Assembly: GCF_038025025.1 (NCBI RefSeq)
Contig: NW_027117338.1
Coordinates: forward strand, 2,728,001 to 2,792,000
Length of the DNA: 64,000 nt
DNA from: Phyllosticta citribraziliensis
Taxonomy: Eukaryota
Direction: 5' to 3'
The notes under the pieces are model-generated. The model was not told the origin of the DNA. It did not search any database and saw only the letters and a program-made list of their open reading frames with translations. Positions within the stretch are counted from its first letter, which is position 1. Each line of letters starts with the position of its first letter. A program made the translations under genes and the position numbers. This document shows, piece by piece, positions 1,812 to 48,855 of the stretch.

Positions 1812-4800
1812 TAAGTCTAAGGTCTCTTTAACTTTACCTAATAACTTTATTACTATATTTAAAGTAGCCCCTACTTCCTATTTTAGAAATCTACCCTATT
1901 AATTAGTACCTAAAATACTATATTTCCTAAAGTCTCTAGCTCTTATTTATACTACTCTATAAAGTATTTATACTATACCCCTATTATCTACTCTTAATTA
2001 GTCTTATTCTAGGCTTGCTCTACTACTAATACTCTAATAGATACTACTTAGAATACTTTAAATAAATTAGCCCCTTAAACCTCTAATATACTTAAACTTA
2101 ATATTAATAAGATTAAGGTAATAGCCTCTAGCTACCTACTCTTTATTAATAAATAAGGACCCTAATTAGATAAGGGTAAAGGCCCTTTTACTATATATCT
2201 AGATATAAACCTAGTTAATATTCTACTCTCTAGCTTAGAAACTACTAGTATTAATAATAATAGTAACTCCTTATTTAATTATACTACTATTCTAGTTATC
2301 TATTCTAGCTTAAATCTTACTAGCCTCTCTATTTATAATAGAGGAGCCTATTATTTATTTCCTTTAAAATAGGAATCCCTATATACCTTTAAGGATTTTA
2401 TTATTAAAACTCTAAATACTACCCCCTTCTTATTTACCTTTCTTTAAGACCTTATTAAGGACTACTACTAAATACTTTATTATATCTCTACCTCTAGAAT
2501 CCCCTTATCTATTATAAAGGAAATAACTACTTTTAAATACCTCTAGGCTTCTTATAATAGTATAAAGAGTATCTTTAATAAATTTAGAAAGAAGAACTTT
2601 AATCTTAGCTATACTATTAATAGGCTCCTTACTAGGATAGAAAGATAAGATACTACTATATTAGCTTAAAAGGTAGACTATTAAATCCTTATTAAGGAGA
2701 TTTATATCTTAAAGATTAAAGCTATCTCTTTATAGAATTAGCTCTCTAATAAGGTTACTAATACTCCTTATATTAAGGTTATTAGTAATAATAAAGACCT
2801 CTCTTTTTATTACTTAATCTAGCCCCCTTACTTTATTATAATCTAAGAACCTATAAGCTAAACTCTTAATAATTATATAATTATTATTTAACCCCTAATA
2901 TATAACTATAAAGAGACCCCCTTCCTCTATAAAGACTCTATTACTACTTAGGTTAACCTATCTAAATCCTTTTAGAAGTCTAGTATATACCTATTAAAGA
3001 AATTTAATAGTATAAACCCTAATAAATATATCTAGTAGTATTTTATTATTAAGATTAAGTTAAAAGTAGATATATCTTTTTACTTTATAAAAAAGAGGAA
3101 GATACTTTATACTCTTTACTTTCTTAATAATTCTCTCTTTATCTTTATATAAGAATAGTTTACTTATTATAATTAGAAAGGCTACCTTATCTCCCTTTTT
3201 AACTTTTTCTATAAAATTAAATACTAGTCTAGTATATTAGATCTAATTAAAAGGGCCTATACTAAACTCTACTCTATCTATTAGAGAGGAGATAAAAATA
3301 CCTTCTAGTTCTATATAAGACTCCTTACTCTTTAGTCCTAAACTAGTTATATAAAGGACTAATAGCTCTATAGCTTTATTTATTCTCTTTATCTCTCCCT
3401 CTTTTATTATATTCTCTATCTAACCTTTATCTAGACTTTTAAAGCCCTTAAAATTCTCTAGAATATTAAAAGGAATACTCTTAATATTAATATCTATTAG
3501 TCTTATATCTATTCCTCTTACTAGTAAAACTAGCTAGCTAAAAATAACTCTATCTATCCTACCTCTTATATACTAGCCTTAAACCCTAATACTAACTCTA
3601 GCCCTAAATAGAAGCCTACTACTATAAGGCCTCTAAATTAGACTAGAGTTTAGTATAAGTCTAAACTATCCCTTAAAAAGCTTAATTTAACTAGCTATAT
3701 AAAGCTTACTACTTAGGACTATTACTTCTATTATTAAGATTCTAGATACTATACTAATAATACTATCTATTCTACTTAGGATACTAGCTCCTACCCTACT
3801 TATATAAACCTTATAGATATTAGTTTATCTAAAGATTCTTCTACTAATAAAGAAACTAATACTAACTCTAAGTTAAAAGATTAAATCTAGAGGATAGTTA
3901 CCCTCTAAATTCTTAGCTAGTATAGCTTATATCCCTCTATTCCTTCTTTATTAAATAAGATTTAACTCTTAGCTTACTATCTTATAAGATTTTAATACTA
4001 GATATTATTTAACTCTAAATTAGGGGCTACTTAGTCTTTTACTCTTTAATAGATAGTTCCCCTATAAAGATCTTACTTAATAGTAGTACTAAAGTAAATA
4101 TAATTAATAAGAACTATATATATAAATATTATATTAATATATCTCTACTCTAGTTACCTATAAAGCTCTTTAATACTAATAGATTAATTAACTCTATCCT
4201 TAAATATACTACCTTAATAAATATAGTACTAGAAGACTATATTAGCTAGGTCTTCTATTATATTATTATTATTCTATAAATTCCCCTTATCCTAGAAGAC
4301 CCTTAGCTCTTTAAATATAATACTACTACTAATTATAAATAGTACTTAATTACTCTCTCTTCTAAGGACTACCTCTAAGCTAGTTATCTTATTAAAGAAA
4401 AACTAATCTAAATCCTTACTATAGATACCCTCCTACTATAATAAGGTATAGAGTAATTAGCCTTTAATATAAAATTTATTAGTATTATATCCTTCTACTA
4501 ACTTACCTATAAATAAGATTATAATTTAGATATTCTCTTTTTAATTAACTCTACTATCTAGCTCTACTTTATAATAATAAATACTATTACTCCTAAAGAC
4601 TTTAAGAAGTTTAAGAAAGGAAAACCTAAGCTCTTACTTTTTAAACTTAAATTATAAATTTTTAATTACCTCTATAACCTTATCTCTATCTTTAATTAGG
4701 ACTAGGCTAAATCCCTATTTAATTACTCCTCTAAAGACTATAAAATTACCTTTAAAGCTAAGAAGGATCCCTTATTTACTTATAGCTATTAATCTCTTAA

Positions 4801-7800
4801 CCTATAAGAGATAGAAATAGTCTACTACTATATTAATAACCTTATATATAAAGGATATACTTATCTTAGCTCCTCCTTAGCTATAGCCCTAGTACTTATT
4901 ATCTAGAAACCTAGTAGAGGCCTTTAGATCTATATTAATTATAGGGACCTTAATAAGATTACTATTAAGAACTAGTACCTAATCCTAAATATAGTTAAGA
5001 TACTCTAGTACCTCTAGGGCTATAAGTACTTTATAAAGCTTAATATTATTACTATCTTTAATAGAATTTAGATTACTATAGGAGATAAATAGAAAATAGC
5101 CTTTATTATCTACTATAGTTAGTTTAAGTACCTAGTAATACTATTTAAACTTTATAATACTTCTAGAACCTTCTAAAGCTATATTAATAACTCCTTTAAG
5201 GACTATCTTAATCTTTAGGCTATAACCTATCTTAATAATATTCTTATCTTTAGTAAGATACTAGAGGAATATAAGAAATATATCTAAAAAGTTATTATCT
5301 ACCTACTTAATTAGAAGCTCTTTATTAATATCTATAAGTATAAGTTCTATATAGAAGAAGTTAAATATCTTAGTCTTCTTATTAGTACTAATAGTATCTA
5401 TATAGATCCTAAAAAGATAGAAATAGTACTAGACTAATAAACCTTAAAGTCTATTAAAGATATTTAGGCCTTCCTTAGCTTTACTAACTTCTATTACTAC
5501 TTTATTAAGGACTTCTCCTTACTTACTTAACTACTTATAGAACTTATTAAAGGGGAACTAAAGACTATTCCTTTAAAAAAGAAATACTATATCTATACTA
5601 CTCTAAATTAGACCCCTAAATATAAATATACCTTTTAGGCTCTTAAAACTATATTTATTTCTACTCTAATACTTACCTACTTTAACCCTAAGTAGGAAAT
5701 ATAGATTAAGATAGATATTTCTAACTTTATTATTATTAGAGTTCTCTTTTAAGTTATTAATAGATAACTTTACCTAGTAGCCTTCTTCTCTAAGAAGATA
5801 TTCCTAATAGAGTATAATTATAAAATCTATAATAAAGAGTTACTTATTATTATTAAGGTACTAGAGTCCTAGTACCTTAAAGCTATTAATATAGAATTAG
5901 ATAATCTAGTAAAGATCTTCTTAGACTATAAGAACCTAGAATAGTTTATAACTATTAAGAATCTTAACTACTAATAGGCCTACTAGGCTAAGTTTCTATT
6001 TAAATTTAACTTTAAAATTATAAACTATTCTAGTAAGTAGGGTAAGAAACCTAATTCCCTTATTAGATACTCCTAGGACCTTCTTTAGGATAACTCTAAT
6101 ATCTACTAATTATACTAATACTAGACTATTCTAAAATAATACTATTTAGATTTAATCTTATAGTTAGTTATCTCCTACTTCTTTACTATACCCTATACTA
6201 TAGACTAACCTATCTCTACTATTCCTAACTTATCCCCTCTATCCTTACTAACTACTCTACTAGAAGAAAGCTATAGAGCCCTTAGTACTACTTATCTATA
6301 GGAACTTATTATTAAAGCCTATAAGACTAATAAGGATATATAATACCTTATAATAGCTATATAGAACTAGGATTTAAAGATCCTAGCTCTCCTTATTAAA
6401 AAGGGCTATTACCTTTATATAGGATACCTAAAGGTTAAGGATAGCTACCTTTTTATAAAAAACTAACTCTTTATTTTTAATAACTCTAAACTATATCTTA
6501 AGGTTATATAGGCTTATTACCTCCTACTATATCTTAGTTACCCTAGTTATAAATTAATAAGTAAGCTTATTAGCTACTCCTATTACTAGCCTAATCTAAA
6601 GAATAACTACTTAATCTTTACTTATATATATACCTAATACTACTAGTCCTCTATTAATACCTAAAAGAAGTAAGGTTTTTTCTAACTACTAGAACTACTA
6701 GCCTACTACTAGACTAGTATTAGCTTTAACTTTATTAAGTATCTCCTAGGCTCCTATTTCTATAATTAGGACTACTCCTATATCCTTATTATAATTAACT
6801 ATCTTATAAAGGCTATTATCTTAGAAGGACTTCTAGATAATAGGGTTAACTCCTTATATAAAGCTATTACCTATTACCTCTTCTATATATAAGGTTTCTA
6901 TAAAGAATATATTAATAACTATAGTAGTACTATACTTACCTAAGTTTAGTACTATATCTACTACTATTATAGTATTAAAATTAAGTACTCTTTAGCCTAG
7001 TATCCTAAGACTAATAGCTAGACTAAAGTAACTAATAAATCTATTAAGAATATCCTCTATACCTTTATTAACTACTACTAAAATAACTAGATATTCTAGC
7101 TCCCCTATATTAAGTTTACTCTTAATAACTATATAAACTCCTTTATTAATATATCCCTATTCTTTACTAACTATAGATATAACCTATATATTAGAATTAA
7201 GCCCCTACTTCTAAATATTAACTAAGACCCTTAAATTAACTATACTAACTATATTATTACCTAGACTTATACTATTACCTAGTAACTTAGTATACTTATT
7301 TAAGCTATATAAAAGGACTATACCTACTATACTAATAAGTACTAAGCCCTATACCTAAACTATAAGGTTAGAGACCTTATCTATATTAATATATAGGACT
7401 TCTCTACTATAAGGCCTAGTAAAAGTTTAGACTAGAAATAGTATAGCCCCTAGCTAATTAAGTATATTATTAATTATAAGGCCTATAAGCTTACTATTCT
7501 AGAGGATAAGCTTATTAATAGCCTTATACTAATCTTCTATCTATAGAAACTTTACCTTATTCCTACCCCTTTTTCTAGTTAAATTCTTAAACCTACTAGC
7601 CCTAATATCCTTACTTATAATAACCCTAAAGATAAGCCTTATAGTAAATAGGAAGTAGCTAAGATTATTAACTTCTATAAGATAAAGTACTTTAGTATCT
7701 AATATAAGGCTACCTTTATTAGTAATTAGGATAATTAGAATACTAACCCCTAGTAGCTTCCTTAGACTAACTTTATCTATTTAAGGAATCTTATCCTAGA

Positions 7801-7944: not shown

Positions 7945-8030
7945 TATTAGGCCTATACCTATATAAGGATTAGTTTACTAGAACCTAACCTAGTATAAGT
8001 AAGTATATAACTATATACTTACTTAGTAGG
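7945..8030 (+). repeat. 3' LTR of element A, left part
   Basis: Matches 1607-1692 and follows the PPT. Confidence 0.9.
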
Positions 8031-8264
8031 TAAGATAAATTAATATAGATAGAGTAGATAGGTAGAGGAGTAGGCGCAAGGTCTATAAGGATACTAAGGT
8101 ATAGGGGATAGCTAAACCTTAGTTATATAGTAGTATATACACCTAAGTAAGCTATAGGCTAAGTTAGCTATAGCTCTATATCCTCCCTACTACTCTACCT
8201 TATAATTATTAATTATTAGCTAATTAACTTACCTTACTAGGTACTAATTTACTACTTTATAATA
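8031..8264 (+). repeat. 5' LTR of element B
   Basis: Direct repeat of 13661-13894. Confidence 0.93.
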
Positions 8265-11200
8265 TTATTATAAGGTTACCTTATTATCTCCTTAAGTAAG
8301 AGCCTAGGTTTCTATCCTAGCTAAAGACTTAAGCTAATAACTCTTCTTTTACTCTATTAGGTAGGTTTAGATTAAAACTACTATATATATATATAATATA
8401 TAAAACCTAGTTGCTATATAATACTAACTAGATAAATATAAGGACTAGTATAGTAAACTTAATACTAAGCTTTACCTTAATATACTTACTTAGGATAATA
8501 ATACTAAAGTTACTACCTATATCTTATCCTACCTCTCTACTAAAGTAGGTAAAGCCTTTATTAGATATTAGAAGGATAGTATTATTACTATCTTATCCTT
8601 TAAGCTAAAGTATAAGCTTAATTCTATATATAGTATTAAGAATAAGTAAGGTAATACTATTACTAAGCTTAGTACTCTTATATAAAGTATAACCCTACTA
8701 AAAGAGTTCCTTATTAAGTTTTAGTCCCTTATTATAGCTACTAGCTAGGATAATATAACTATAAAGAAAAGTCTATTAGTTAAGCTCTTATATAGTAACT
8801 ACTATCTTATACTTACTTAATATAATAACCCTCTTAATAATATAGTCTTATTCCTTATAGAAATAGCTAATACCTAGGCTACTTATAACTATACCTTTAG
8901 TACTAAGGCTTATAAGGATAGTAATAATAATATATATACTAGTAAATATACCTCTTATAGAGTATATAGTAGATATAGAGGATTCTATAGTAGCTAGGGT
9001 AGTAATAGTACTAGTACTAGTACTAATACTACTTATATAGATAATAAGGATATAGATAAGGATATTACTAGTAAATATAATATATCTATAGTAAAGTACT
9101 ATAACTATAATAAGATAGGCTATATCTCCTATAACTACCTAGATAAAAGTAAGGATAAGATTTAGTCTATTTATATTATTAATACTAATTTAGAAAATAA
9201 GTAGCCTTACTTAAAGTTATAGAGTAGGGTATATAAGATAATAGTTTAGATAAGGATAAATTAAGTAATAATAAACTCTCTTTATCCTACTCTTATATTA
9301 TCTATATATATATTATAGGATAAGTTATCCCTCTCTAAGCTCTAGTAGATACTAGCTATAGAGGGTATATATATATTAATACTTTATTAGTAAACTATCT
9401 CTACTAGTATAGAGTATATAAGTAGCCTCTAGAAAAGCCTTATATTATAATAGGCTTTACTAGAAAAGACTACTATTAACTTATATACTAATTAAACTTC
9501 TACCTATAGGTAGGACTATATTATAACCTTTTTATACTATTTATAATTATACTACTTAGTAAGGATTATAATATATATATTAGCTAGGAGTACTAAAGGT
9601 AGTATAGCTTTATAATTAATATAGGAGCTAGTACCCTAGAGATCTAATAACTAGTAAATATAAATATAGGATTACTCTATAAAAATAGTAAATTATAGAT
9701 AATATCTAAAATCCTAAAGAGGATTCTACTAGTAGAATCTAGCTAATTAAATAATAAAGAAACTTACTAAATAATTCTACTAGTAGAATTAGACTAATTA
9801 GAGTATAAGTAGTTAAGCTAGCTAGTTCTACTAGTAGAACTAGATAACTAAAAGACTTAAGATAAAAGTAGAAATTCCCTAATAGAAACTAATACTAAGT
9901 ATACTTATAGTAAAGAATTAATTATAGTAATAATTAGATATAAGGCCCTATTACTATTACTATATAAGATATAAATAAAGTAGGATAGTACTAAAGATAT
10001 TACCCCTATCTTATAGTCTATATATAAAAAGATAGTTAAGAAATATAGCTTAAAGGCCTATAGTACTATATTCCTACTTATAGATAATAATAATAGAATA
10101 GAAATAATAGTTTATTATCTTATTAATACTAACTACCCTAAAGTAATTAATAGTAAATAAAATAAAGGAGTAAATTATATTAGTTAAGAAGACCTTAATT
10201 ATTAATAGACTAAATACTTAAAACTAGCTACTAATCTAAAGACTAGAGTACTAGAGGAGTATTATAACCTATTTAAGGTATTTTTTAAGGAAGTATCTAA
10301 TAAACTTCCTCCCTCTTATCTTAGATTAGACTTTAAAATTAAATTAAGTAGTAATACTACTAGTATTAGATATAGTAGGCTATTATATATATCTAAAGTA
10401 ATAGTAGGAGAGGTAAAGTAGTATATTTAAGAGAATAAGGCTAAGGATTTTATTAAGAAGAGCTACTCTCTTACCTTATTCTCTATTCTACTAGTTTATA
10501 AGCCTAGAGATAGTATATAGTTCTATATAGACTACTAATATCTTAATAGTATAATAAAGAAGAATAGATATACTATTTTATTAATTAATAAGACTATTAC
10601 TCTTATTAGAGGGGCTAAATAGTTAACTAAAGTAGATATTAGATAAGCTTTTAATTATATCCTAGTAAATAAAGGCTTATATAATCTTATAATATTTTAA
10701 ATAAAATTTAGTACCTATTATTATAAGGTAATACCCTTTAATATTACTAATAGACCTATAGTCTAGTAATACCTTATTAACTAATACCTTATAGAGTTCT
10801 TAAATAAGTTTTATATAGTATACCTAGATAATATACTTATCTATAGTAAGATACTTAGCTAGTACTACTAATATATCTATAAAGTATTAAAATATCTCTA
10901 AGATTAGGGCTTATAAGTAGATATTAATAAATATAATTTCTATATATAAGAAATAAAGTTTTTAGGAGTAATTATTACTACTAAGGGACTAAGAATAGAC
11001 CCTATAAAGATTAAAGTAATTATAGGCTAGTAAGCCCCTTACTTTATATATAATATCTAATTATTCTTAGGATTTATAAACTTTTATAGGTATTTTATCT
11101 ATAGATTTAGTAGTAAGGCTAAGCTATTAATATAGCTAATAGGAAAGGATATCCTATTTATATAGGGACTAGAATAGTAGTAGGTATTTAAGGCTCTTAA

Positions 11201-13660
11201 GGATATAGTAATAAGTATACCTATATTATACTACTTTAACCTAAAGCTTAAGACTATTATAGAGACTAATATATCTAATATTAATATTAGTAGGGTTCTC
11301 TCTTAGAAGATTAATAGATAGATATACCTAGTAGTATTCTTCTCCTATACTATAACCCTAGCTAAAATAAACTATATAATCTATAATAAAGAGCTATTAG
11401 CTATTATTATAGTACTTAAAGCCTAGGAGCTAGAGTTAAAGTTAGTAGACCTAGGACTATTTACTATATATACTAATTACTAGATACTATAATAGTTTAT
11501 AATAACTAAGAAGCTCTAAAGATATTAGATTTAATAGAATAAAGAACTAGTAGGATACTATTTTAAGATTATCTACTAATCTAGAAAAGTAAATAGTAAA
11601 GCTAATACTCTTATATACTAGATATAAGACTAAGTAACTAAAAATAATAATTATAACTAGTACTAGTATTAAGTACTACTTCCCCCTAAAAGGTTAGATA
11701 AGTCCTATAAATAGTAGGACTTAAAGCTCTTAAAAGAGGACTAGGCTAACTCTATTATAAATAAACCTAATAATAAGTATACTCCCTTCTATACCCTACT
11801 AAAGGAGTATAAGGATAATATTATTAAAGATGACCTAGGTAAAGATAACCTAGAGTATACTAAGATAAAGCTAGAGGATAAGTAACTAATACTACTTATT
11901 AGCTCTATACTTCCTCCTCTCCTAATATAATTTATAAATAATAATAATAATAACTATAAATAGGAAGAGTAGACCTTAATTAATAGGTTAGACTTAGGCT
12001 TAAGAGGAGTAGACTATAATACTCCTTCCCTACTTATCTTACTATCTACTAGTATAGTAATCCTAATAACTAGTAGAAAGAAAGATAATAGTACTATCTA
12101 GATAAAGAACTCTAAAGTTATTACTAGCTACCTAGTAGACCTAGAGGATATTATTAAAGTAATTAAATAGTATAATTATAAGATAATACTAGAAATAGAC
12201 TCTCTCTATAAGTAAGTAGGAGAGTATAAAGTATATATACTCTATAATAGCTTATTATATATAGCTAATAGGTTATATATCCTAGAGGAGGATAACCTAT
12301 ATATCTACCTACTTAGGTATATCTATAAGTAGCTAGTAATAGGATATCTAGGTATAGCTAGAATATACCCTATAGTATTAAGCTAGTATTATTTCCTAAA
12401 GATAAGAGAACTAATTACCTAGCTTATAAAGAACTATATACTTTATAGCTATAGCTAGAAGTATAATAAAATAAATAGCCTATTATAGCTATTACTAGTA
12501 GGAGAGTATCTATAGGAGGACCTTATTATAGACTTTATAACTAGCCTTAAGAAGATTAAGTAAGGTTATAATATTATCCTTATAGTATATAACTAGTTTA
12601 GTAAATCTAAGTACTATATTAAGTATAGTATAGAAGATAGTAGGATAGGAGTAGCTAAAATAGCTAAAATAATAATTAAGTAGGTCTTTAGCCTCTATAG
12701 CCTATTAAGGACTATTATCTTAGACTATAGCCTATAGTTTATTACTAACTTATAGAGGGAGGTATTATAATAATTAAAGATAATAGCTAAGCTAATAACC
12801 CCCTATTATCTATAATTAGATAGCTAAATAGAGTAAGCTAACTAAGAGCTTAAGAAGTACTTATATAGCTTTATTAACTAGAGATAAGATAACTAGGATA
12901 TATAGCTACTAATTATTAAACTTATAACTAATATACTAGTTAATACTTCTATAGGTATATCCCCCTTCTTTATATATTATAGCTTTAAACTATATATAAG
13001 CTTTAATTATAGTAAAGTAAGATTAAAGTTAAAATTAAGAGCTAAGGTATTAGCTATAGAATAGGTAAAATTAATAGAGGATATTTAGTTAAAGACTTAG
13101 TTAGTACTTATACTTATAAAAGAGAGATAAGTATACTAAGCTAATAAATACTAATATACTTATAATATTTAAGAGAATAATCTTATCTTTATTAAAGTAA
13201 AGTATATAGATACTAGATACCCCTAGAAGCTTAGATAGCCTAATTTAGGGCTATATTAAGTAGACTCTATAAGAGATAACTAGGTAATATTAGACTTATT
13301 ATAAGGTTCTTATATTATAAACTAATTTAATATAGAATAGTTATATTAATATAATAATAGGCTACTACCTAGTTAATAAGAGCTACCCCTACTACTAGAG
13401 CTAAATAATAAAAGTAAAGAGGAGTAGTATATATAGGAGGTCCTAGATATCTAGATAAATAAGTAAAGGGGAGGTATACTATAGTTTTAGATTTATTAGA
13501 TAGGATATCTACCTAATATAACCTAGTAGGATATTAATAATAGCTTATTTAATAGAGTAGTTAAGACTATCCTAGATTAGTATTAGATAAATAATAAAAA
13601 GGGACTATACCTACTTAATAGCTAGTCCTTAGGTTAAGGACTTAAAGGGGAGGGGGATAG

Positions 13661-13894
13661 TAATATAAATTAATATAGATAGAGTAGATAAGTAGAGGAG
13701 TAGATATAAGGTCTATAAGGATACTAAGGTATAGGGAATAGCTAAACCTTAGTTATATAGTAGTATATATACCTAAGTAAGCTATAGGCTAAGTTAGCTA
13801 TAGCTCTATATCCTCCCTACTACTCTACCTTATAATTATTAATTATTAGCTAATTAACTCGCCTTACTTAGTACTAATTTACTGCTTTATAATA
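13661..13894 (+). repeat. 3' LTR of element B
   Basis: Direct repeat of 8031-8264, preceded by the PPT. Confidence 0.93.
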
Positions 13895-13899
13895 GTAGG

Positions 13900-14018
13900 C
13901 TAAGTAATTAGCCTACTATAACTATATTTCTACCTTCTTCTTAGTACTACTTCTCCTTTTCTCTTTACCTTAGACTTTTAGTTAGCTAAATATAGTATTT
14001 ACCTCTTTAAGCCTTATA
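13900..14018 (+). repeat. 3' LTR of element A, right part
   Basis: Matches 1693-1811 and is followed by the TSD GCTTA. Confidence 0.9.
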
Positions 14019-16009
14019 GCTTACCCCTAGCTATATTAACTAAACCTAAGGCTATTATACTAAAGGCTATAATTATACCCCTAGAAACCCCTAATAATAT
14101 ATCTTTACTTCTATACCTACTAGAAATACTAACTATAACTAAGTAGAGTATACCTATAAGTAGCTTACCTACTATTACTAAGTAACTCTAGTATACTTAA
14201 GGTAATAATACTAAGGAAAGTAATAAGGAAGAGGTTATAGTTATAGGATAAAGTAATAGAGATAAGACCTCTAATATAAAGAAGAATAGTAGCTAGCCCC
14301 TAGACTATAATAGAAACTAACTAAATAGTACCTTACTAATAACTTTTACTACTCTCTTTAAGTATAAATAGCTTCTTATACTAACTAAAATAGCTACTAT
14401 AGTACTAGATACTAATAATATAGAGGACTTTATCCTAATCTCTAGTAATAATAATACCCCTATTATAACTTATTATAAAGGTAAAGGTAAAGCTACCTAT
14501 AATATTAAGGAATATAGTACTATAGAGGATAATACCTTAATACTCTATAGAGATAATAATACTAAGCCTAGTAAAGGTAAAGCTAGGTTAACTACTACTA
14601 GTAACTAAATATACTTAAAGGAGTCTTAGAAGCTAATACTATATAATATTAATACCTTTAAACCCTCTAATTATAAGAAGGGTTACTTTCTTTAGGAGAT
14701 ATATAACTAGCTACTTTTTAAGTATACTAGGGCCTATTACTATATTATCTATAATAATACCCTACTATTATTAGGAGTCTATTTATCTAGCTAGCTTATT
14801 ACTATACTACTTATAGTTATTTAGCTTTACTATACTAGTTATAATCTTAAGGACTATAATATTAAAAGCTTATATCTCTATTTCCTAATAGAGGGTAGTA
14901 TAAATAGACTCTATTACTCTATAGGTTTTAGTTTACTTATTATTATTAAGTAGGGATAAGTATATTTTACCTATCTTATAAAGCTAGGTAGATACTTATT
15001 CTATAGAGACTAGGGATACTAATAGTTTCTAGGCTATAAAAAGGAAGGGGACCCTAATATTAACTTTACTATCCTATAGTATAGTATTATAGTTAATTTA
15101 TATAAGTACTATAGTCTATTTCTAATCCTAGACTATATATTTAAGGTCTCTAAATTTATATTAGACTATATATACTTAATTATCCCTATAGAATTATAAT
15201 TCTACCTACTAATATTAGACCTAGCTAACTTTTACTAGTTCTCTATATAATAGCTCTAGAAGTTTATAAAGTACCTAGTAGAAAGGGATAAAGAGTATAT
15301 TATTAGTAATAAGTACTATACCCCCTAGGTAGATAATAGGAAGAACTAGTAGGCCCTAGTAGTCCCTATAAAGGATAAGGACTTTATCTACTATCTATAT
15401 ATAATATCTAATATTAACCTAAAGGATATTACTATAATTATATATAACCCTAATTTTCTTAAGATATATAGTAAGGATATATTAGAGGTATAACCTAATT
15501 ACCTATTAGCTATTCTAGGTACCTATAATAGCTAGATTTATTATATCCCTAAAGAGATATTAGAAGAGATATACTAGTAGTATAAATAGACTAATAATAA
15601 AGCTAATATATAAGCTACTACTATCTTTAATAAAGAGGAAGCCTACCTTATAGCTAGTAGTAGCCCTATTAACCTAGGGTAGGGTATAGTTACTACTAAA
15701 GTACCTAATAACTATTTTACTACTAGGTTTAATAATAATAAAGCTATATTAACTAGGATCTATAATTACCTTATAATAAGGAACCCTAAGACTATAGGTA
15801 TTAGAACCTATACCCTATAAATAGATTATAATATCCCTATACTATTAAGTATTATAGACCCTATAATAGTTACTTACCTAATTATAGGTAGTCCCCTTAC
15901 CCTATATTTATAGAATAAGATAATTATTCCTATATTATAGTTTAAGCTTAGTATAGGCTATTAACTTACCCTACTCTCTAAATATAACCCCCTTTAGTAT
16001 AAGTATAAG

Positions 16010-16432
16010 TGTCACAACTCGCAGATTTCTCATTATGCAGGTGAGGGCTAAAGGTAAACTGCTAGAAAATGCATATATATCTTAATTAAATATAATAAGT
16101 TAAAAGAATAAAATATAAAAGATACTTACTACCTATATATTTCCTAGTCCTTCCTTTATACTATTCTACCTCTTATCCTTTATATAAGGGTCCTTAGTTA
16201 TTATTAGGTGAGTTATAAAGGTGAGGTATTAATAGGCTATTATATAGTATCTTCCTAAGGCTATAGTAGCTGGTGCTAGGCTATAGTAGCTAGTACTAGC
16301 CTATAGGTTTTAGCCTGAGCTGTAGTGGGCTGCTACCTAAGGTAAGGCTTATACTTCCTGTAACCGCGCGACGCCGGGTTTGTCTGTGCTGGCCCTGGTG
16401 CTTATATAGGCGCGTGTATGCCTATCATGACA
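16010..16432 (-). repeat. 3' LTR of element C
   Basis: Direct repeat of 23860-24282. Confidence 0.93.
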
Positions 16433-16680
16433 TGGATAGGTGCATGTACGCCTATTATGATATGCCCCCCCTAAAGAGAAGCTGAAATTATGGGAATTGG
16501 TAGCTGCAGGCGCTTATATAGGTGTAGACTTATGATATATAATGGTGGTAATTCAGTAATTTAAGCATTCTATATAGTTATAAAGTATAATTATTAGTCT
16601 AGGTCTACTACTATACTATCTCTTTCTATTACTATCTCTTTTACTATATAACCTATAGAAGGTTACTATCTTACTTAGCT

Positions 16681-18149
16681 ATATCTAAAGCTCCCTATTA
16701 AAGTATATTATTATCCTAGTCTAATTTAGCCATAATCTAGTGAACTGACTATTACACATAAAGGTTCTAATAATTTAAATAATTTATACCCTACTAATAG
16801 TAAAGTAGACATTCCTGGCTACTATATACTTAATATATCTACTACTTATTATAGTCTAGTCTATTAGGACTTATTACTATTATATAAGAGTTATAGTATT
16901 AAGTTATTATTATATAGTATTATTTATAATCTATTATAGTTACTGCTTACTTAGAGAGCTATTTTAGCTAGTAGTATCTATAAGGACTATTATATAGAGT
17001 CCTAAGGTAAGTAAACCTTCTATCTCTTTAAACTATTACTAATTATTATCCAGGCCATTAAGTAGTATTATATATCTAGGTTTTACTACTTTATTATCCC
17101 ATCCTACCAACTAATATAATTATAGAGGAGGACACTCATATAAATACTTAGTTAGGCTAGGCTTTACTTATTTAGCTAGGAATAGCTATAGGCTTATCAC
17201 TTTACCTATAGCATACTATAGTATTAGATTCTACTCAATTAGTATTATTAGTTATCGCACAAGGTTCATCATCTATAGCTATATAGCCTACTACTAACCA
17301 GCCTATTATACTACATTACTGCCAGTTTACTATTATGCAGCCTATTTTAGAAGAAGAAGGTAAAGAGCCTACTCATATATACTATTATTATAATCCTACA
17401 GCTTATTAGGTTCTGGCAGCTAAGTACTTACTACCTACTACTTTATATAATAGTAGTAATAGTGAGATTTATATTACAGCATTACTAGTTAGCTCTAATA
17501 AGGTACCTATTAAGTAGGACTTTAAGTTAATACTTTATATCCCTTATAAAAATATAGAGAGTATTATATAAGTAAGTTTATCTTACTAATATAAGGGATT
17601 CTTATCTAACTAACTATATAGGCATACCTTAATAGTTCTAAAGTATAAGAGCGCGCTAAATATATCTTAGCCTTAGATAATAGTATACCTTACTTATATA
17701 TTATAGTTTCTACTTAGTAATTTAACTACTTATTAGTTAAAATCTAAGCTAGCTCATATAATGCTTTTCTTATCTAGTATACTAGAATTAATAACCCTAT
17801 TAGCTATACCAAGTATTATAATAATACTAATACTTATATATTTATTAGTTATTACCACCTACCTAGTTTCTTATGGGGCCGCTGCACTAACTACCTTTAG
17901 GGTACAGGTAACCTTAACTATACTATAAGTAACTTAAAGGGTGCTAAGCTACCTACTTATTATAAGAGGTATAAAGATAAGATTTATATAGAGGAGTTTT
18001 AAAGCTTATACTACTAGGCTAGGTTAGAGGATTAAACTAATTAGGCTTTAACTAAGTAGGATATCCTACCTAATAAGCTAGAGGATCTAGAGGAGATAGT
18101 CTTATATAATAACTATTATAATAAGAAGAAGGGAAAAGGAAAGAAGTAA
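16681..18149 (+). pseudogene. Antisense, spliced accessory gene inside element C with a DUF3716-like Cys-rich domain (RIP-mutated)
   Basis: Introns at 17007-17053 (GTAAGT..CTAAT..CCAG) and 17572-17621 (GTAAGT..CTAAC..TAG), plus a tentative one at 16740-16800, join exons in one frame. The last exon reads NAFLI*YTRINNPISYTKY...FISYYHLPSFLWGRCTNYL*GTGNLNYT, which de-RIPs to an A-x-x-I-Q..G..CxxC..FxxC..GxCxNCxW..C pattern. Confidence 0.7.
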
Positions 18150-21100
18150 AGGGTAGAAATTAAAGAAGAGGATAGTAGGGAATAAGTAGTAAAAAGGAGA
18201 GACTAGAGAGTAGAAGTTAAGATTAATAGTATTTATATAAGGGTAGATAGTAAACTAATTAGTCTACTTTCTATATCTTTATAATATTTACTATAGGCCT
18301 AAGTAACTTATTTTATTATTACTTTCTATTTTAATCTATAGTTCTTCTTAGAGGAAGGTAGCCTTCTATTTTTCTAGATTTTTTAGTAGTCCTACTATAG
18401 TAGGGTATAATAAGTAGAATTCTTTAATTTTCTATAGTATACTACTAAAAGAACTTATATTATACCACTAGTCATCTTAGTTATATCTAGTCTATTTAAC
18501 TTAGTATTAAAGCTTCCTATATAAGACTTAACTAGCTTAAATATAGTCTACTTTCTACTTAGGCTTATCTTAAATAATCTTAGGTTTAGGTTTAGTATAT
18601 TCCTAACTAGGAAGCTATTCTATTTTAGCCTTATATAGCCTATTAGTATAGAAAAGGTTAACCATCTTTATATATAAGGGAAGATTAAGGATATAGGAGG
18701 ATCTTTCTATTCCTATAATCTTAAAAGGTCTAGTATTAGGAAAGTCTAATTTAAGGTTTAGCTAATTAGTAGACTATCCTATTTTCTTAATATAGATATA
18801 ATCTCTAATTATAAAGTCTGGTGTATAATGGTACTTATTGGCTTATTAGTATATATACTCTTAGGATTTAAGAATAAGATTCTTTATAAATTTAAAAGCT
18901 TCTTATTTTCTCTTTTATAGTATTTATACTACTATATAAGCTATCTTCTCTAGTTACTAGGGGGTCTTAGTTCTTTATTACTAGTTATAGTATATTTAAG
19001 GGGAATATCCTAACTTAATCTTAAAAGGTAAAAGTCTAGTAGCTTTATAAGGAAGTATTACTTGTGTAAGGTCTATTAATGGTAGAAGATTAGACTAATT
19101 ATTCTGAAAGTAATTAATAAAAGGTCTTAATCTTTATATAAGATGCTAATTAATAATCTCTATAATACTATTAGTTTAAGAGTAGTAGGATGAGTTAAAA
19201 TACTACTCTATACTAGTTAGCTTATATAGTTTATTTATAAATACTAAGATGAACTGAGGGCCTTAATTAGATAGGATAAACTTAGGGTTTCTATAAATAT
19301 AATAGATATACTTATAAAAGAGCCTAGAGACTCCTTTAGTATTAATCTTCTTTATATAAGGTAAGCTAAAGGTTCTTTAACTTAACTAGTCTATAATAAC
19401 TAGGATTATATTATAGCCTTTTTAATCTTTAGGTATCTCTTTAAAATCTATAGCTAAGTATTACTAAGGTTAAGTAGGAATCTCTAGGGGTTATAGAAGG
19501 CCTAGGTCTTTATTATAAAACTCTTTTATTTAGTAGTAAATATAGTATCCTTACCTATAAATATTAATTATATAATTTATAGCTAGCTAGTAGTAATATT
19601 ACTTAAGGAGTTTTTATATCTTTATAATACTAGGATAGGTAGTTATATAGGTAGTATATAAAGTATTAAGTATTCTTATATAGAGGTTATTATAATCTAG
19701 TATAAAGAGGGTACTATATTATAGTAAAAGACTATCTTTTAGTTCCTAACTATTTCTTTATTTAAAGTCTTATAAGAGGGCTTTCTATCTCTAGAGTTCT
19801 AATTTAGAATCTTCTCAGTTTATATAGAGGAGTTTATCTAAAAATAATACTAGAGGAGGAAGTTCTTATTTTAAAATAGAAAGAGGGATAATAGTCTCTA
19901 ATAGGATAAGATATATCTCTTATATAGCCTTTACTTTTTCTTTCTAAGTCTTTAGGTCTTCTTATTTTTAAGTAAGGTAATTAGTAATAATATTTTCCTT
20001 TCCTAGTTAATAAGAGAATTATATATAGAACTCTATAAAAAACTTAGACTATCTAGCTTATTATTAATTAAGTTATTATTTAGTAGAGTAGTACTCTAAT
20101 ACCTAATAGTCTATAATTATAAGAAAAGATTTTTTAAGGCTAATAAGTATTAGTCTCTATTCTTCTAGTCTATTCTTAATAGCTAGCAGTTCTTTATTAG
20201 ATATTCTATAATAAAGTTCTATATCTACTATTACCTTAGAGTAGAATACTACTAGTTTCTAATTATATAAAGGTTACTAGAGCTATATTAAGATGCTAGT
20301 AGTAACTCCATTACTTATATTAGTCTCTATATAAGTATTAAGAGTAGGGTTATAGTTAACTAGGAGTATATTACTATATATCAGCTTCTTAAGTTATTAA
20401 ATTACCTCTTCTTCTAGGGGTCCTAGTTATTACTATTTTACCTTAGAGTATAGTTTCTCTAATAGCTAGCTAATTTATCTATAGTTAGGGAGAAATTATT
20501 AGTAGAAATTATAGAAACCTAGGAAGGATTAAAGAGCTTTAAGGGTTTTTAGTATTAGCTAGTTTTATATAGGTTCTACCTTATCTAGGTCTATTTAAAT
20601 ACCTTCTATAGAAATAATATATCTAAGAAACTTTATATAAGTAACTAAAAACTTACTCTTCTTTAAATCTATCTATAGTCCTACTTTTTATAGTCTTACT
20701 AGTACTTTTTTTACTTATTCCTTATACTCTATAGGGTTTTTAGAGATAATAAGTATATTATCTATAAAAGCCATAATAAAATTATCTAAATACTTAAAGA
20801 GAACCTGGTTAATAAAATATTAAAAGGCTATAGGTCTATTACTTAATCTAAATAGTAAGATATAGTATTTAAATAACCTATATCTTATATAGAAGGTGGT
20901 TTTATCTTTAGAATCCTTAGTAAGATAAATATAGTAGAAAGCTTATTAAATATTAAGCTTAGTATAAATCTTACCCTTTCTAATACACTAAAGTAACTCT
21001 ATAATAAGAGGGAGGGGGTGTAAATCCTTAGTAGTTTATTTATTAAGCTATTAGTAGTCTATATAGAATCTCCATCCCCTACTAGGCTTTTTTACTATAA

Positions 21101-23859
21101 GAATAGGAGAAGTATAGGTAGTAAAGCTCTCTATAATAAAGCCTTTTTAAATATTCTCAATAATATACTCTTTTACAGCCTTAAGCTGCTCTAGAGACAT
21201 TCTATAGAGAGGACTAGGTAGAAGCTCTAGTAGACCATTATATATAAGAGATATTTTATAATTAACCCCTATATAATATAGTAGTAGCTCATTAGACTCT
21301 ATTTTAGAAAACACATCTTAAAATTCCTTATAAGCAGCTAGTAGCTTAGAAGCTAGTAATTCCTTAGTTTCCTTATCTTTAAGAGCCGCTTAAACTTATA
21401 TAAGGTTAATAGTATAGATCTCCATTAGCATAACTTATATTTTATAAATAGAAAGCTTAAATATATCTTAAGTTTAGAATTTAATTCCCTTAATAACCTA
21501 TACTAAGGGAAGGAGGTATTTATTAAATTTTTTATCTCTATAGTCTACATCTACTTAGTATTTTTTCTATAGTTCTTTACTTCACATAGAGATTTTTAGT
21601 AGGTATAGAAGATGCTAAAAGGACTAGTTAACTAGTAGCTATCTCTAGACTAGTTTACATCATTTATAGTCTAGGAGGATATTATACTAGTCAAAAAACT
21701 ATTACCTAAGAATTATATTATTATAGCCAATATTATAAATAAAAGTATAAGTAGAAACCATTTAATCCTAGAAATAGAGTTAAAGATAAAAGTAAAAATT
21801 AACCTTCTTATTTATACATTAGTTAAACCTAGTAATATTAAGCCCTTTACCTATTATTCTCTTTTTTATAGTACCTATAGACTAGAGAGTTAGTAGTAGC
21901 TTAGAGTAAATAAAACTCATACCTCTAGTACTAGTATTAGCTAGGGCACAAATTTCTAAGGCGCGGCTATTAGATATAATTAAGGTTTATATAGTAAAGG
22001 GTACACCTCTAATAAAGTAACTAAGATTTATATAAGAACCCTTAATATATATTACTCTAAGTTTAGACCTAAGGTAGGAGACTTTACCTAGGTCTTATTA
22101 TTTTCTAATAAAGACTAATCTCCTTTATTTATATAGATATCTTTAGCACTTTCTTCTTCTACTAACTCTATTACCTTTATCTCTAGTTATAGGTATTACC
22201 TCTATAAATAGCTAAACTAGCCATAGTAATTATATAGTCTAATCTCTATATAGACTTCTACTTTACCTTTATAGGTTATATTATATAAGGGAGCTCTAGA
22301 TATAGATCGCACCTATATATAACTAGAAGATAAAGTAATTATACCACCTAAGGTAGTTATCTTTACTCTTTCTTATTATCTCTTCTTTACTCATTCCTTA
22401 TATAACGTGAGCATTAGTTTTCTATAGTTAGAATAGTAGTTACTAAGACTTTAAGTAATAGGGTAGGCTTATTAGAGGTACTTATAAAAGTTAATATCCT
22501 CATCTTACTCTATAGTAACTATATAGGTTTAAAGGAGAGGATCTATTATATTATAAAAGTCCTCTTTCTACTATTTCTAGGGAAGATCTATATCTAAGGC
22601 TAATTATATAAAGTTTAATTAAAACTTCTAAAGGTCTATAGGAATATAGTATATAAGAGAGTATAACTACTTCTTTATATCCTTATATTTATATAGACTC
22701 TAGAGGAGGTTATCTAGGAATTTAAAGATATCCTTATCTAGAGTAACTTTATTAGCCTTTATATAAGAAGTAAGAAAAGGAGTTAGGTAATATAAGACTT
22801 CTCTACTAATATAGGAAATAATATAACCTATAATGTTTTATTTAGTCTCCTCTACTATATCTTTAGTAAAGTAATTGTAGTTTTATTTAATTTTATTTTA
22901 TATAAGGAGGGTCTAGTATTTATATAAGGGGTCTTCTCTATTAGTAAGAAGAGGAGAATTAGGAACCTTACTACTTTAGTATTTCTTACTACTTAAAGAT
23001 AAAGTAGAGGTTTTAGTAGTAGTTTCCCTTATATAGGTTAGAGGAGGTCTAAGAGTCCTTATTACTCTACTAGTAGAAGGATCTTAAGAGAGGGTAATAG
23101 GTCTTAGGTACTAAGCTAATAAAGAGGGCCTAATATATCCTTCCCTTAAGGCTTCCCTTAGTCTATTAGTATAGTTTAAGAGTATTTACTTAAGAGCCCA
23201 GTTCTACCTTTATATATAGTTTAGTTACTACTGCACTTAAGACTTATTTAAGGATATAATCTTAGATTTAAATTAATTAATATCTAAGTATAGTACCTTT
23301 ATAAACGCCTCTATAACTAGAGCTTAAATAGTATAAGTTAACCCTAGGTCTTAGGTATATTCTTTCACCTCTACTACTAGAACTAAGTAGAAATTATATA
23401 AGAGAATAAGGGTAGGTCCTCTCTTATTATTATTTAATAAGTATCTAGTATTATATAAATCTTTAGTACCTTTATATAAATCTTATCAAGTTAATTAACT
23501 AGTACTAATACCTTTAGTAGTACTAGACATATTAGCTTTATTCTTAGCCATACTATCTTTATAGTCTTCTACTTAGAATATCCCTTAAGTAGGTTATAGA
23601 TAAGATGCCTCCTAGATATTTATATACTACCCTATAGCCTTAACTAAAGACTTCTATAGTTAATATATACTTAATACTCCTTAGTCCTCAGATAATACTA
23701 ATATACCTAATAAAGACAACTTAGGTTTACTAGGGAAAAGTAATAAGTAGTCTTATATAAGACTATAGCTATATATAATATTACTTAGGTTAAATATTAT
23801 AACACCTTTATAGGTAAAGAAGTAGGATAGAGCTAAAACTTAGAATAATCTTTTATATC

Positions 23860-24282
23860 TATCATAACTTATAGATTTCTTATTATATAGGTAAGGGCCA
23901 AAGGTAAACTACTAGAGAATACATATATATCTTAATTAAATATAATAAGTTAAAAGAATAAAATATAAAAGATACTTACTACCTATATATTTCCTAGTCC
24001 TTCCTTTATACTATTCTACCTCTTATCCTTTATATAAGGGTCCTTAGTCATTATTAGGTAAGTTATAAAGGTAAGGTATTAATAGGCTATTATATAGTAT
24101 CTTCCTAAGGCTATAGTAGCTAGTACTAGGCTATAGTAGCTAGTACTAGCCTGTAGGTTTTAGCCTAAGCTATAGTGGGCTGCTGCCTAAGGTGAGGCTT
24201 GTACTTCCTGTGACCGCGTGATGCCAGGTTTGTCTATGCTGGCCCTGGTGCTTATATAGGCGCGTGTACGCCTATCATGACA
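23860..24282 (-). repeat. 5' LTR of element C
   Basis: Direct repeat of 16010-16432; ends in catgaca followed by the TSD ataag. Confidence 0.93.
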
Positions 24283-24894
24283 ATAAGTAGCTTATATACC
24301 TAAGGTATATACCCTCTATCTATTACTACTACCTTACTAAGTCTAAGGCCTTTATTAAAGGTTTTAATATTAATATTAGTAATAGTATAGTAGTATAGGT
24401 AGCTTCTATAGTTATATATAGACTACTATTCTAGACTTTCTAGGATAACTATAATATTAATATCTAGTATATTTATATCCTACCTACTAATAATAATATT
24501 AACTCTAAGGTATAGAATAAACTACTTAATAAGCTCCTTAATAATTAATAATAGTATAATACTAATATTAACTATATAACTAAATACCCTACTAGCTATA
24601 GGAGCCTTATAGCCTATAAGATTTATATTACTAATATTCTATATTAGATACCTAATAATTAGCCCTAGGAAGTATTAGAATAATAGAGACTAATAGAAAA
24701 GCTAGTATTTTATATATAGGAGGATAACTAGATTTTATAATAAGGATATTATTAGTTTATAGCTACTATTTTATTATATATCTATATATCTTTACTTAGT
24801 ACCTAGCGCGTTTAGTATAGCAGCCCTAGGTTAGGTAGGGGCCCTAGCCTATATAGTTAGCCCCTAGCCCTAGCTAGGGTATTTAGACTAATTA

Positions 24895-46572: not shown

Positions 46573-48855
46573 TCAGTACGCAACCTGCGAGCTCAAGCCA
46601 TCCAACTCGCGGTCAAAGTTCTTGTGCTGCGAAATGGCAAAGAAGTAAGCGTCGACAAAGTCCTTTGCGCCCTTTGCCATCTGGAACGCCTCCTTGAACG
46701 AGCTGGGTTGCGTCTGAGCCGCCGTGACGACGCCGTACGAGTCGACAACGTCGGCCGAAGACGAGAGGGAGAGGCCAGGAAGGCCACATGCGTCACGGAC
46801 GAACGCGACGGCTTCGCCAACGGCACCAATGGCCTTGAGGTGGCCGAATGCCTCGCGGACCCAGTGAAGTGCGCGGCCGTTCTTGCGCAGCGTTGAGATG
46901 CTGTCGGCGCCGCCGGGGATGAAGATGCTGTCGAACATGGTGCTGCGCATGCCCTCGAGGTTGTGGTCGGGCTTGACGCCCTTGCCAGACGAGCGGTCCT
47001 CGCCGGCGGCGAAGATGGGCGTGCGGCGCGGCGCAATGGTGAAGGGGAGGGCCTGGGCGGCCTGCAGCGCGGCCTTGATGCCTGCGTAGGCAACCGGGTC
47101 GAAGCCGTCGGCGATGATGATGGCGACCCGTCGGGTCTTGATGGTCGGCTCCTTGGGCATGAAGTCGAGCTGCGAGAGACCCTTGCTCTTCTTGCCGTGG
47201 TTGGCGCGCTTGGTCGACTGCGGGATGACTCCACCAACAGCCTCGGCCACTTGCTGTGCGAGGCCCAGGTCGATTTCGGCCAGGCGCTCGCACATGCGCT
47301 CGTAGACGATGGGGTCGTCGCAATGGTCCAATTCGAACGAGTACGACGCGATCACGTGGGCCTTCTCAGGCTCGGACAGCGAGTTCCAGAAGAGCTGCGC
47401 CTGGCTGAAGTGCTCCTGGAACTTCTTGCTGCGCAGGCGCTGCTTCAAGCCAACCACCTTCTCCGGGAAGTCGATGTACGCGCCCTCGGCCTCGCTGGCC
47501 GGCGGCACGGCGCTGTAGCGGTTGGGCCAGTAGTTGACGGTGCCCTTGGTGATGGTGTGGCGGCCCTGGCCGTCGCGGTGGTTGTTCATCACGGGGCAGA
47601 TGGGCCGGTTGATGGGCAGCTCTTGCCAATTGACGCCCAGACGCGAGAGCTGCGTGTCAAAGTAGGAGAAGTTGCGGCCTTGCAGCAGCGGGTCGTCTGA
47701 GAACCCAATGCCCGGCACCACGTGCGCCGTGCAAAAGGCGACCTGCTCCGTCTGCGTGAAGTACTCGTCCGGGTTGCGGTTGAGCTCGAGCTCGCCAATG
47801 TACCTGATGGGGACAAGCTCCTCGGGCCAGACCTTGGTGGCGTCGAGAATATCAAACTCGAAGTTGTGCTCGTCTTCCTCGGGGATCGTCTGGATGCCAA
47901 ACCTCCACTTCGGGTAGAGGCCGGCTTCGATGGCTTCCCACAGGTCCTTGCGGTGGAAGTCGGGGTCCTGACCTGCAAGCTTCAGGGCCTCGTCCCAGAC
48001 GAACGAGTGAACGCCGAGCTCGGGGGTGAAGTGGAACTTGACAAAGTGCCTCTTGCCCTGCTTGTTGACCAGGGTGTAGGTGTTGACACCGAAGCCCTGC
48101 ATCATGCGGTAGGAGCGGGGAATGGCGCGGTCAGACTGCGTCCACATGGCCATGTGAGTGGCCTCGGTGTGCAGGAATTGAAAGTCCCAAAAGTTGTTGT
48201 GGGCGGTCTGCGCCTGAGGGACCTCGTTGTGCGGCTCGGGCTTGCCGGCGTGGATGACGTCGGGGAACTTGATGGCGTCCTGGATGAAGAAGACGGGGAT
48301 GTTGTTGCCAACGATGTCCCAGTTGCCCTCTTCGGTGTAGAACTTGAGGGCGAATCCTCTCACGTCGCGGACAGTGTCGGCGCTGCCTCTGCTGCCCAGG
48401 ACGGTGGAGAATCTGAGAAAGACTTCGGTCTCCCGCGAGGTGTCGGTCAAGACACCTGCGGAGGTCACGTCTTCGGCGCTCTCGAACAGCTTGAATTTTC
48501 CAAAAGCAGCGGCACCTCTTGCGTGCACAACCCGTTCAGGAATCCTCTCATGGTCAAACTTCATAATCTATGACAAGAGTCAGCCAGGTTCCAGTGGCGG
48601 TCGACGCAGGCGGCGTACCTTTTCTCTTGCGAAGCCATCCTCGAGAAGCTGGGGGCCAGTCTTGTCCTCGGTGGCGACCTTGAGCCAGTCATCGGTGTTG
48701 TTTTCCTTGACTCCCCAGTCCGAGGTGATGCGGTTGCTCTGGTCGTGATAGTCCTTGGTGGAGCGGGCAAGGTCTGCGTTCTTGGAGCCGAAACCCATGG
48801 GGCAGCCGCCGCCAGTTGCTCTAGCGAGGCCGGAGGTCAAAATGTTGGAAGCCAT
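46573..48855 (-). CDS. catA: Large-subunit monofunctional catalase (CatA/Cat-1 type, C-terminal DJ-1-like domain), about 743 aa
   Basis: FDHERIPERVVHARG active-site motif, RFSTVLGSRGSADTVRDVRGFA and heme-ligand motif LQGRNFSYFDTQ. No signal peptide seen. Intron 48618-48568. Confidence 0.95.

Follow-up and report, generated by a model that had tools for sequence, protein, structure and literature searches.

We favour, with some reserve, the explanation that element C, an LTR retrotransposon of Phyllosticta citribraziliensis, is a RIP-killed copy of a multi-copy chromovirus family that carries an antisense, two-intron accessory gene in the spacer that separates pol from the 3' LTR. The element lies in a stretch of 64,000 nucleotides that was analysed as a whole (the window). 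The spacer probably holds a spliced coding region on the plus strand, antisense to pol; the evidence for this comes from coding statistics that are independent of stop codons, not from homology.

Architecture and setting of element C

Positions 1-27000 of the window form an AT-rich block of ~25% GC. The remainder, at 50-64% GC, carries ordinary fungal genes, including those for a catalase, a WD40 protein and a BTB protein; the host genes are GC-rich (55-60% GC). Both the AT-rich block and element C are RIP-saturated. The RIP indices TpA/ApT and (CpA+TpG)/(ApC+GpT) amounted to 1.73 and 0.33 in the spacer, and to 0.50 and 1.29 in the gene-rich half. The main features are as follows.

23860-24282, minus strand: 5' LTR of element C, 423 nt, TG...CA, direct repeat with 16010-16432
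18315-21386, minus strand: pol (RT, RNase H, integrase, chromodomain), RIP-saturated, located by tblastn to P0003
16433-18314, no strand: spacer of 1.88 kb from the end of pol to the 3' LTR
16465-16472, minus strand: polypurine-tract-like G-run, read directly, putative function
16010-16432, minus strand: 3' LTR of element C, 423 nt, TG..CA ends
46573-48564, minus strand: catalase gene (Catalase, Catalase-rel, Catalase_C), a long ordinary host gene in the GC-rich half

The LTRs of element C start with TGTCA and end with TGACA, the upstream copy being altered by RIP, and the element is flanked on both sides by a 5-bp target-site duplication, CTTAT (24287-24283 and 16009-16005). The empty site was found in one contig of the public sequencing run X1, which fuses 16004 with 24283; the 8278 nt that it skips are accounted for by the element together with a single copy of the duplication. 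Element C thus represents a single clean insertion, and the other repeat that it entered must also exist without element C.

Alignment of pol to P0003, an intact chromoviral protein that carries PF00665 and PF00385, yielded one tblastn HSP over residues 284-1304 with 35% identity and no frameshift. The alignment is colinear over 1032 columns and reaches residue 1304 of 1318. The Pfam search identified RVT_1, RT_RNaseH and RT_RNaseH_2 in the pol frame and missed integrase (rve) and Chromo of this RIPped copy. We collected 337 Pol relatives; among the 120 matches listed, integrase is present and chromodomain families occur in many, and the closest to the Pol of element C are metagenome proteins. 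The LTR pair, the target-site duplication and the RT-RNase H-integrase order with a C-terminal chromodomain classify element C, on sequence grounds, as a Ty3/Gypsy chromovirus. The first-pass annotation had already placed a Gypsy chromovirus on the minus strand, with pol ending near 18270. Both statements hold in view of the tblastn alignment, which runs to 18315, the Pfam domains and the domains of the relatives.

A RIP-altered partial copy of the LTR start (first ~24 nt) is located immediately upstream of the 3' LTR, at 16433-16463. Before it comes a stretch of seven G resembling a polypurine tract (window 16433-16472).

The spacer and its other copies

The gap before the 3' LTR, earlier put at ~1.7 kb, is real and measures 1.88 kb (16433-18314). 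No second copy of the spacer is present within the 64-kb window. We placed contigs from four public runs (X1, X2, X7 and X9) on positions 15900-24400 at 80% likeness, which gave 3305, 703, 35 and 33 pieces in the four runs; those of run X1 are spread across all likeness classes (1161, 1366, 689 and 89 pieces). Diverged contigs of all four runs cover the spacer, and in runs X1 and X2 it is covered in six of six bins. Among the contigs listed, seven cover or bridge it (records 2, 3, 17, 18, 25, 26 and 27). The pieces listed differ by 4-14% from the window and comprise 16535-16867, 16597-16805, 17110-17363, 17511-17737, 17578-17742, 17917-18210 and 18100-18292, the last of which links the candidate gene's end with the pol tail.

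Neither a breakpoint nor a cluster of loose ends was found at the spacer borders in the contigs of the four runs, and the spacer itself contains no terminal repeats and no second target-site duplication. A one-off insertion, which the first-pass annotation had named as an outcome that would speak against its reading, is not what we observe, because diverged contigs from other public runs cover the spacer. Contig depth does not equal copy number, and the spacer is therefore assigned to several diverged copies, not necessarily to all. Its position inside one LTR pair with a target-site duplication, together with the diverged contigs that bridge it to pol, supports the conclusion that the spacer belongs to the element family.

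Two candidate introns join an antisense frame

On the plus strand of the spacer, the candidate gene consists of the following parts.

16802-17006, plus strand: candidate upstream exon in frame 2; the codon model weakly prefers frame 2 over ~16620-17000
17007-17053, plus strand: candidate intron 1, 47 nt, GTAAGT..ACTAAT..CCAG, leading from frame 2 to frame 1
17054-17571, plus strand: candidate middle exon in frame 1, best of six frames over ~17126-17725 with margins of up to 15 bits
17572-17621, plus strand: candidate intron 2, 50 nt, GTAAGT..CTAAC..TAG
17622-18149, plus strand: candidate last exon in frame 0, best of six frames, with the stop TAA at 18147-18149
18123-18146, plus strand: basic tail KKKGKGKK, the C-terminal end of the spliced frame

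The two introns are found exactly where the first-pass annotation had drawn them, at 17007-17053 and 17572-17621, each with the order GTAAGT...branch...YAG, and by these motifs both are canonical for filamentous fungi. At position 17051 of intron 1, other copies have T, and the YAG is preserved. With introns of 47 and 50 nt, plus-strand frames 2, 1 and 0 combine to a single reading frame of 416-417 codons (16802-18149). The earlier description of a single frame of ~435 codons is thus correct as to the joining, with 417 codons counted from 16802, and unsupported as to a start at 16681 and a third intron at 16740-16800. The third intron is unsupported because the codon model prefers frame 2 on either side and 61 nt would shift the frame. 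No in-frame ATG occurs in the spliced frame, including the upstream exon and the start at 16681; an ATG could have been destroyed by RIP. The tail KKKGKGKK, also described earlier, is present and is followed directly by TAA.

Seventeen intron-like motifs were counted in the 27-kb block; six are on the plus strand, and two of these six belong to the candidate gene. For splice-consistent coding, intron 2 has the top rank among the 17, and intron 1 and the first exon have poor flanking coding scores. No contig that skips either intron was seen among the contigs listed for the four runs, and in the piece 17511-17737 (record 2 of run X1, a diverged DNA contig) intron 2 is kept whole.

The spliced frame is interrupted by 25 internal stops (17 TAG and 8 TAA, no TGA) and encodes 51 Tyr and only 2 Cys. 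In this copy the candidate antisense gene is a dead pseudogene and hence has no present function in the P. citribraziliensis genome. That the frame is interrupted only by RIP-type stops, as noted in the first-pass annotation, carries no weight, as nearly all stops in this DNA are TAA or TAG in every frame.

Coding statistics on RIPped DNA

In this RIPped DNA the stop count does not reveal the reading frame. The true pol frame of element C contains 202 stops in 1841 codons (0.11 per codon), a density equal to that of the off-frames. Because the true frame is as stop-rich as wrong ones, stop counts and frame openness are uninformative, and stop-codon density was rejected as coding evidence. We used instead two models: a position-specific base model, with one half of pol for training and the other for testing, and a codon log-odds model, for which elements A and B served as training data and the pol of element C as test. 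The former selected the correct pol frame out of six in 18 of 18 windows; the latter found the correct frame in all 30 element C pol windows. The spacer was excluded from all training sets of both kinds of model.

Applied to the spacer, the codon models rank three plus-strand frames best in turn: frame 2 (weakly, ~16620-17000), frame 1 (~17126-17725) and frame 0 (~17576-18250). The frame 0 peak reaches +12.7 with a margin of 19 bits, which is within the range of real pol windows, and the switches from frame 2 to 1 to 0 fall at the introns 17007-17053 and 17572-17621. The spliced frame scores +8.5, compared with -34 to -91 for its five other frames and -48 to -60 for the unspliced frames. When any three segments in any frame on either strand were allowed, the best score was 13.8; second-order Markov simulations based on this DNA gave -14.3 +/- 8.3 for this quantity, with a maximum of 6.6, and none of 200 reached the observed value. 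The score of the last-exon window was matched in 1 of 300 simulations. When elements A and B were the sole training data, the score of the spliced frame was -1.8, yet this is 48 bits above the next frame.

These scores bear on a simpler explanation, namely that the spacer encodes nothing and is a 3' untranslated or regulatory part of the element, in which the frame, the introns and the motif described below arose by chance in RIP-saturated TA-rich DNA. The stop density of the proposed exons, 0.06-0.07 per codon, would agree with it, since it ranks only near the 9th percentile among the frames of the block, as would the weakness of the first exon and intron 1, the post hoc definition of a Tyr-for-Cys motif, and the fact that Pfam, phmmer and word searches returned no homologue of the product. 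In addition, the codon model favours a plus-strand frame at 21601-22140, in the gag/protease part, where weak protease matches are on the minus strand; this call is probably a false positive, or perhaps a second antisense reading, and its size is comparable to that of the spacer signal. Chance would nevertheless have had to produce frame switches that match two canonical introns in both place and phase, together with a segmented score and a last-exon score reached by 0 of 200 and 1 of 300 simulations, respectively. We regard a non-coding spacer as rather unlikely.

Codon-position statistics trained on RIPped pol recover reading frames where stops and profile searches fail, and such statistics may help to annotate AT-rich isochores.

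The predicted product and the DUF3716 lead

The last exon contains the stretch from which a zinc-binding module had been proposed.

17805-17921, plus strand: Tyr-rich stretch, proposed former Cys motif, with one Cys left, in WGRC

The first-pass annotation gave a Cys-rich string for this exon. The reversals behind it (Cys for Tyr, Gly for Ser, Val for Ile, and Trp or Gln for TAG) all correspond to G-to-A changes of the kind made by RIP and are in this respect compatible. The string itself is absent from the sequence, which reads YTKY..F..Y..GRCTNY..Y with a single real Cys. The Cys spacing so obtained would resemble the signature of the fungal DUF3716 family. A single instance of the pattern [CY]xx[CY]-Fxx[CY]-GX[CY]xN[CY]-[CY] is present in the 27-kb block, and 0.5% of simulations contain it, figures that apply to a pattern written post hoc with the presumed family signature in mind. 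In pol, the effect of mutation on such residues can be read directly: the 52 Cys positions of five intact relatives appear in element C as 30 Tyr and 0 Cys, and only ~7% of the window's Tyr in pol align to Cys, most of them deriving from Tyr, His, Arg or Phe.

Pfam DUF3716 (PF12511) comprises 59 positions and has a cut-off of 22 bits. Searching the RIPped spacer with Pfam, an assay of low power on such a copy, gave no match at E<=1 with whole X-read frames or at E<=10 with four short segments. A search of 1.84 billion representative proteins by phmmer yielded no genuine relative of the spacer product. Word-index protein searches confirmed none of 14 candidates for the last exon and none of four for the Cys region; a metagenome scan with the last exon produced 435 pattern matches, of which none was confirmed; and a PDB sequence search with the product returned noise only. 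PF12511 had no match in five MAGs with fungal contigs or in 14 control genomes.

One phmmer candidate, P0002 (E 2e-4), was rejected as a homologue, since it is a tandem-repeat protein without a Pfam family and its score is the sum over three repeats.

The DUF3716 match proposed in the first-pass annotation thus finds no support in the Pfam, phmmer and word searches or in the 98 related loci described below. These tests have low power here because the conserved Cys of pol all read otherwise, mostly as Tyr, and Pfam misses the element's own integrase and chromodomain. The DUF3716 identity derives from a presumed family spacing and assumed Tyr-to-Cys reversals; it is a lead only, and unlikely to be correct.

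In the literature found on DUF3716/PF12511, no report places the domain on a retrotransposon. Excerpts of one study describe REP9-1 and REP9-2 of Zymoseptoria tritici as DUF3716 genes on an IS3EU-type DNA transposon (PMC8232023), that is, on a class II element and not a retrotransposon such as element C, for which DUF3716 is a candidate only. The excerpted literature also names DUF3716 for a Fusarium gene that is described as orthologous to a Neurospora protein binding telomeric sequence. Were the DUF3716 reading true, element C would be a second case, after REP9, of this domain on a fungal mobile element. A more far-reaching version, in which the spliced antisense accessory gene of a high-copy chromovirus family encodes a zinc-binding nuclear protein of DUF3716 type and the domain was repeatedly recruited by unrelated fungal elements, is quite unlikely in our estimation. 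It would make DUF3716 common to a chromovirus, the Zymoseptoria REP9 DNA transposon and the Neurospora telomere-repeat-binding protein, and would identify it as a DNA-binding module whereby mobile elements control their own chromatin or expression.

Related chromovirus loci

We assembled 98 Pol-relative loci with 24-58% identity to P0003 (79 from metagenomes, 4 from a viral collection and 15 from prokaryote MAGs). No conserved or similar antisense ORF was found behind pol in any of the 98, nor was the C..C...C...C.NC motif. Comparison of the spacer with these loci by tblastx gave a best E of 0.012, to AT-rich DNA of locus L044; this match was judged compositional and was rejected as a spacer homologue. 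The long post-pol stretches of L009 and L048 turned out to be other elements.

As a separate observation, the 15 loci filed as bacterial or archaeal MAGs (L084-L098) carry fungal-type chromovirus Pol, and the protein P0117 is named Thaumarchaeota. These are likely eukaryotic contamination of prokaryote bins.

The absence of anything similar in relatives with 30-56% Pol identity could indicate that the plus-strand coding region is a passenger without a role, such as part of a host gene or of another mobile element that was transduced by, or nested in, an ancestral member of the family and then copied along. Cellular genes typically have introns, the excerpts of PMC11963269 discuss transduction for plant aORFs, and DUF3716 genes, if that identity applies, ride a Zymoseptoria DNA transposon according to those of PMC8232023. 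The many diverged contigs that cover the spacer, the borders free of breakpoints and loose-end clusters, and the spacer's lack of terminal repeats or a second target-site duplication argue against a passenger, and we consider it very unlikely. It differs from the accessory-gene explanation only in function.

Antisense genes of similar layout and a possible mechanism

We return to the preferred reading, an accessory gene of the element family. The candidate gene is convergent with pol, and ~100-170 nt separate the two gene ends. Element C has a probable opposite-strand coding region lying between its pol and its 3' LTR, an arrangement termed aORF-3R; the position is certain and the coding statistical. 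The layout is already known, from brtn of Boty and from Grande, RIRE2 and Retand, and by analogy the gene of element C is a probable case of the aORF-3R type.

Introns that are antisense cannot be removed from the sense genomic RNA, and reverse transcription copies them. The first-pass annotation's argument that antisense introns survive reverse transcription is accordingly sound and established knowledge, and the retention of intron 2 in other DNA copies fits it. Transcription of the candidate gene would be driven by a promoter inside the element, close to the polypurine tract or the 3' LTR. The introns would persist in the element family because they are antisense in the genomic RNA and would never be spliced before reverse transcription. 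The predicted product would be at least ~415 residues long and would have contained a Cys-rich module, since lost, and a tail rich in lysine. Judging by this tail, the possible Cys module and the analogy with plant aORFs and retroviral antisense genes, its most plausible role would be on nucleic acid in the nucleus, modulating the element's own expression. The zinc binding, the nuclear location, the promoter close to the LTR and the anti-silencing role put forward in the first-pass annotation are all hypothetical.

HBZ of HTLV-1 is spliced. It offers an analogy, mentioned in the excerpts of PMC11963269, in that it is expressed from the 3' LTR side, antisense to gag-pol, and regulates its own element. 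It differs in being a bZIP protein of an animal retrovirus and has no sequence relation to the product of element C.

The earlier statement that antisense ORFs at this position are described mainly in plants needs correction, since Boty elements of Botrytis and Sclerotinia carry brtn, as the excerpts of PMC7264820 and PMC8365987 indicate. In the former, this antisense gene is located between pol and the 3' LTR and is traced to work of Zhao et al. 2011 (Virology 417:248). Later Botrytis work, in the parts available, draws brtn in the BcGypsy1 subfamily and reports, for an element resembling Boty, 'brtn-106' in addition to gag, zinc knuckle, protease, RT, integrase and chromodomain (PMC8365987, PMC4227169). 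As far as these excerpts go, Boty resembles element C as a fungal chromodomain Gypsy element with an extra gene antisense to gag-pol before the 3' LTR, a likeness in layout. Element C differs in that its host genes are GC-rich (55-60%) and that its Pol is closest, among the matches listed, to metagenome proteins.

In plants, antisense ORFs between pol and the 3' LTR are listed in the excerpts of PMC7264820 for maize Grande, rice RIRE2, Silene Retand and Phaseolus PvRetro13. According to the available part of PMC11963269, the antisense TRP28 gene of Retand is nearly always present and is thought to be DNA-binding. Plant aORF-3R elements (Grande, RIRE2, Retand) share the antisense position with element C, and their products are suspected in the same excerpts to be DNA-binding or nuclear (PMC11963269, PMC7264820). 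They belong to non-chromovirus lineages and have spacers of 2.9-6.6 kb with TRP28 or other domains, whereas element C is a fungal chromovirus with a 1.88-kb spacer, two candidate introns and no recognised domain.

If the antisense gene is real, element C would add another fungal lineage to that of Boty in Botrytis and Sclerotinia, the second with a Gypsy antisense gene, in this case an intron-bearing one. That would favour the view that accessory regulators recur among LTR retrotransposons and are not peculiar to plants, and the family would offer itself for functional tests of an antisense accessory gene.

Other elements and the mutation pattern

Several observations were made beside the spacer. 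Contigs of runs X1 and X2 skip 1603 nt of pol (19170-20774) and carry the same 19 other letters instead, apparently a family derivative that has lost an internal part and is presumably non-autonomous. Further along the AT-rich block, three related LTR-like repeats (1607-1811, 7945-8274 and 13660-14018), spaced by 6.3 and 5.6 kb, bracket two plus-strand Gypsy elements with RT at 4736-6019 and 10266-11576. These two elements seem to share LTRs in tandem.

In the RIPped pol (18315-21386), stops correspond in intact relatives to Arg (109), Gln (103) and Trp (58), and Tyr is aligned to Arg 76 times. By these counts the mutation process in pol seems to hit CpG besides CpA.
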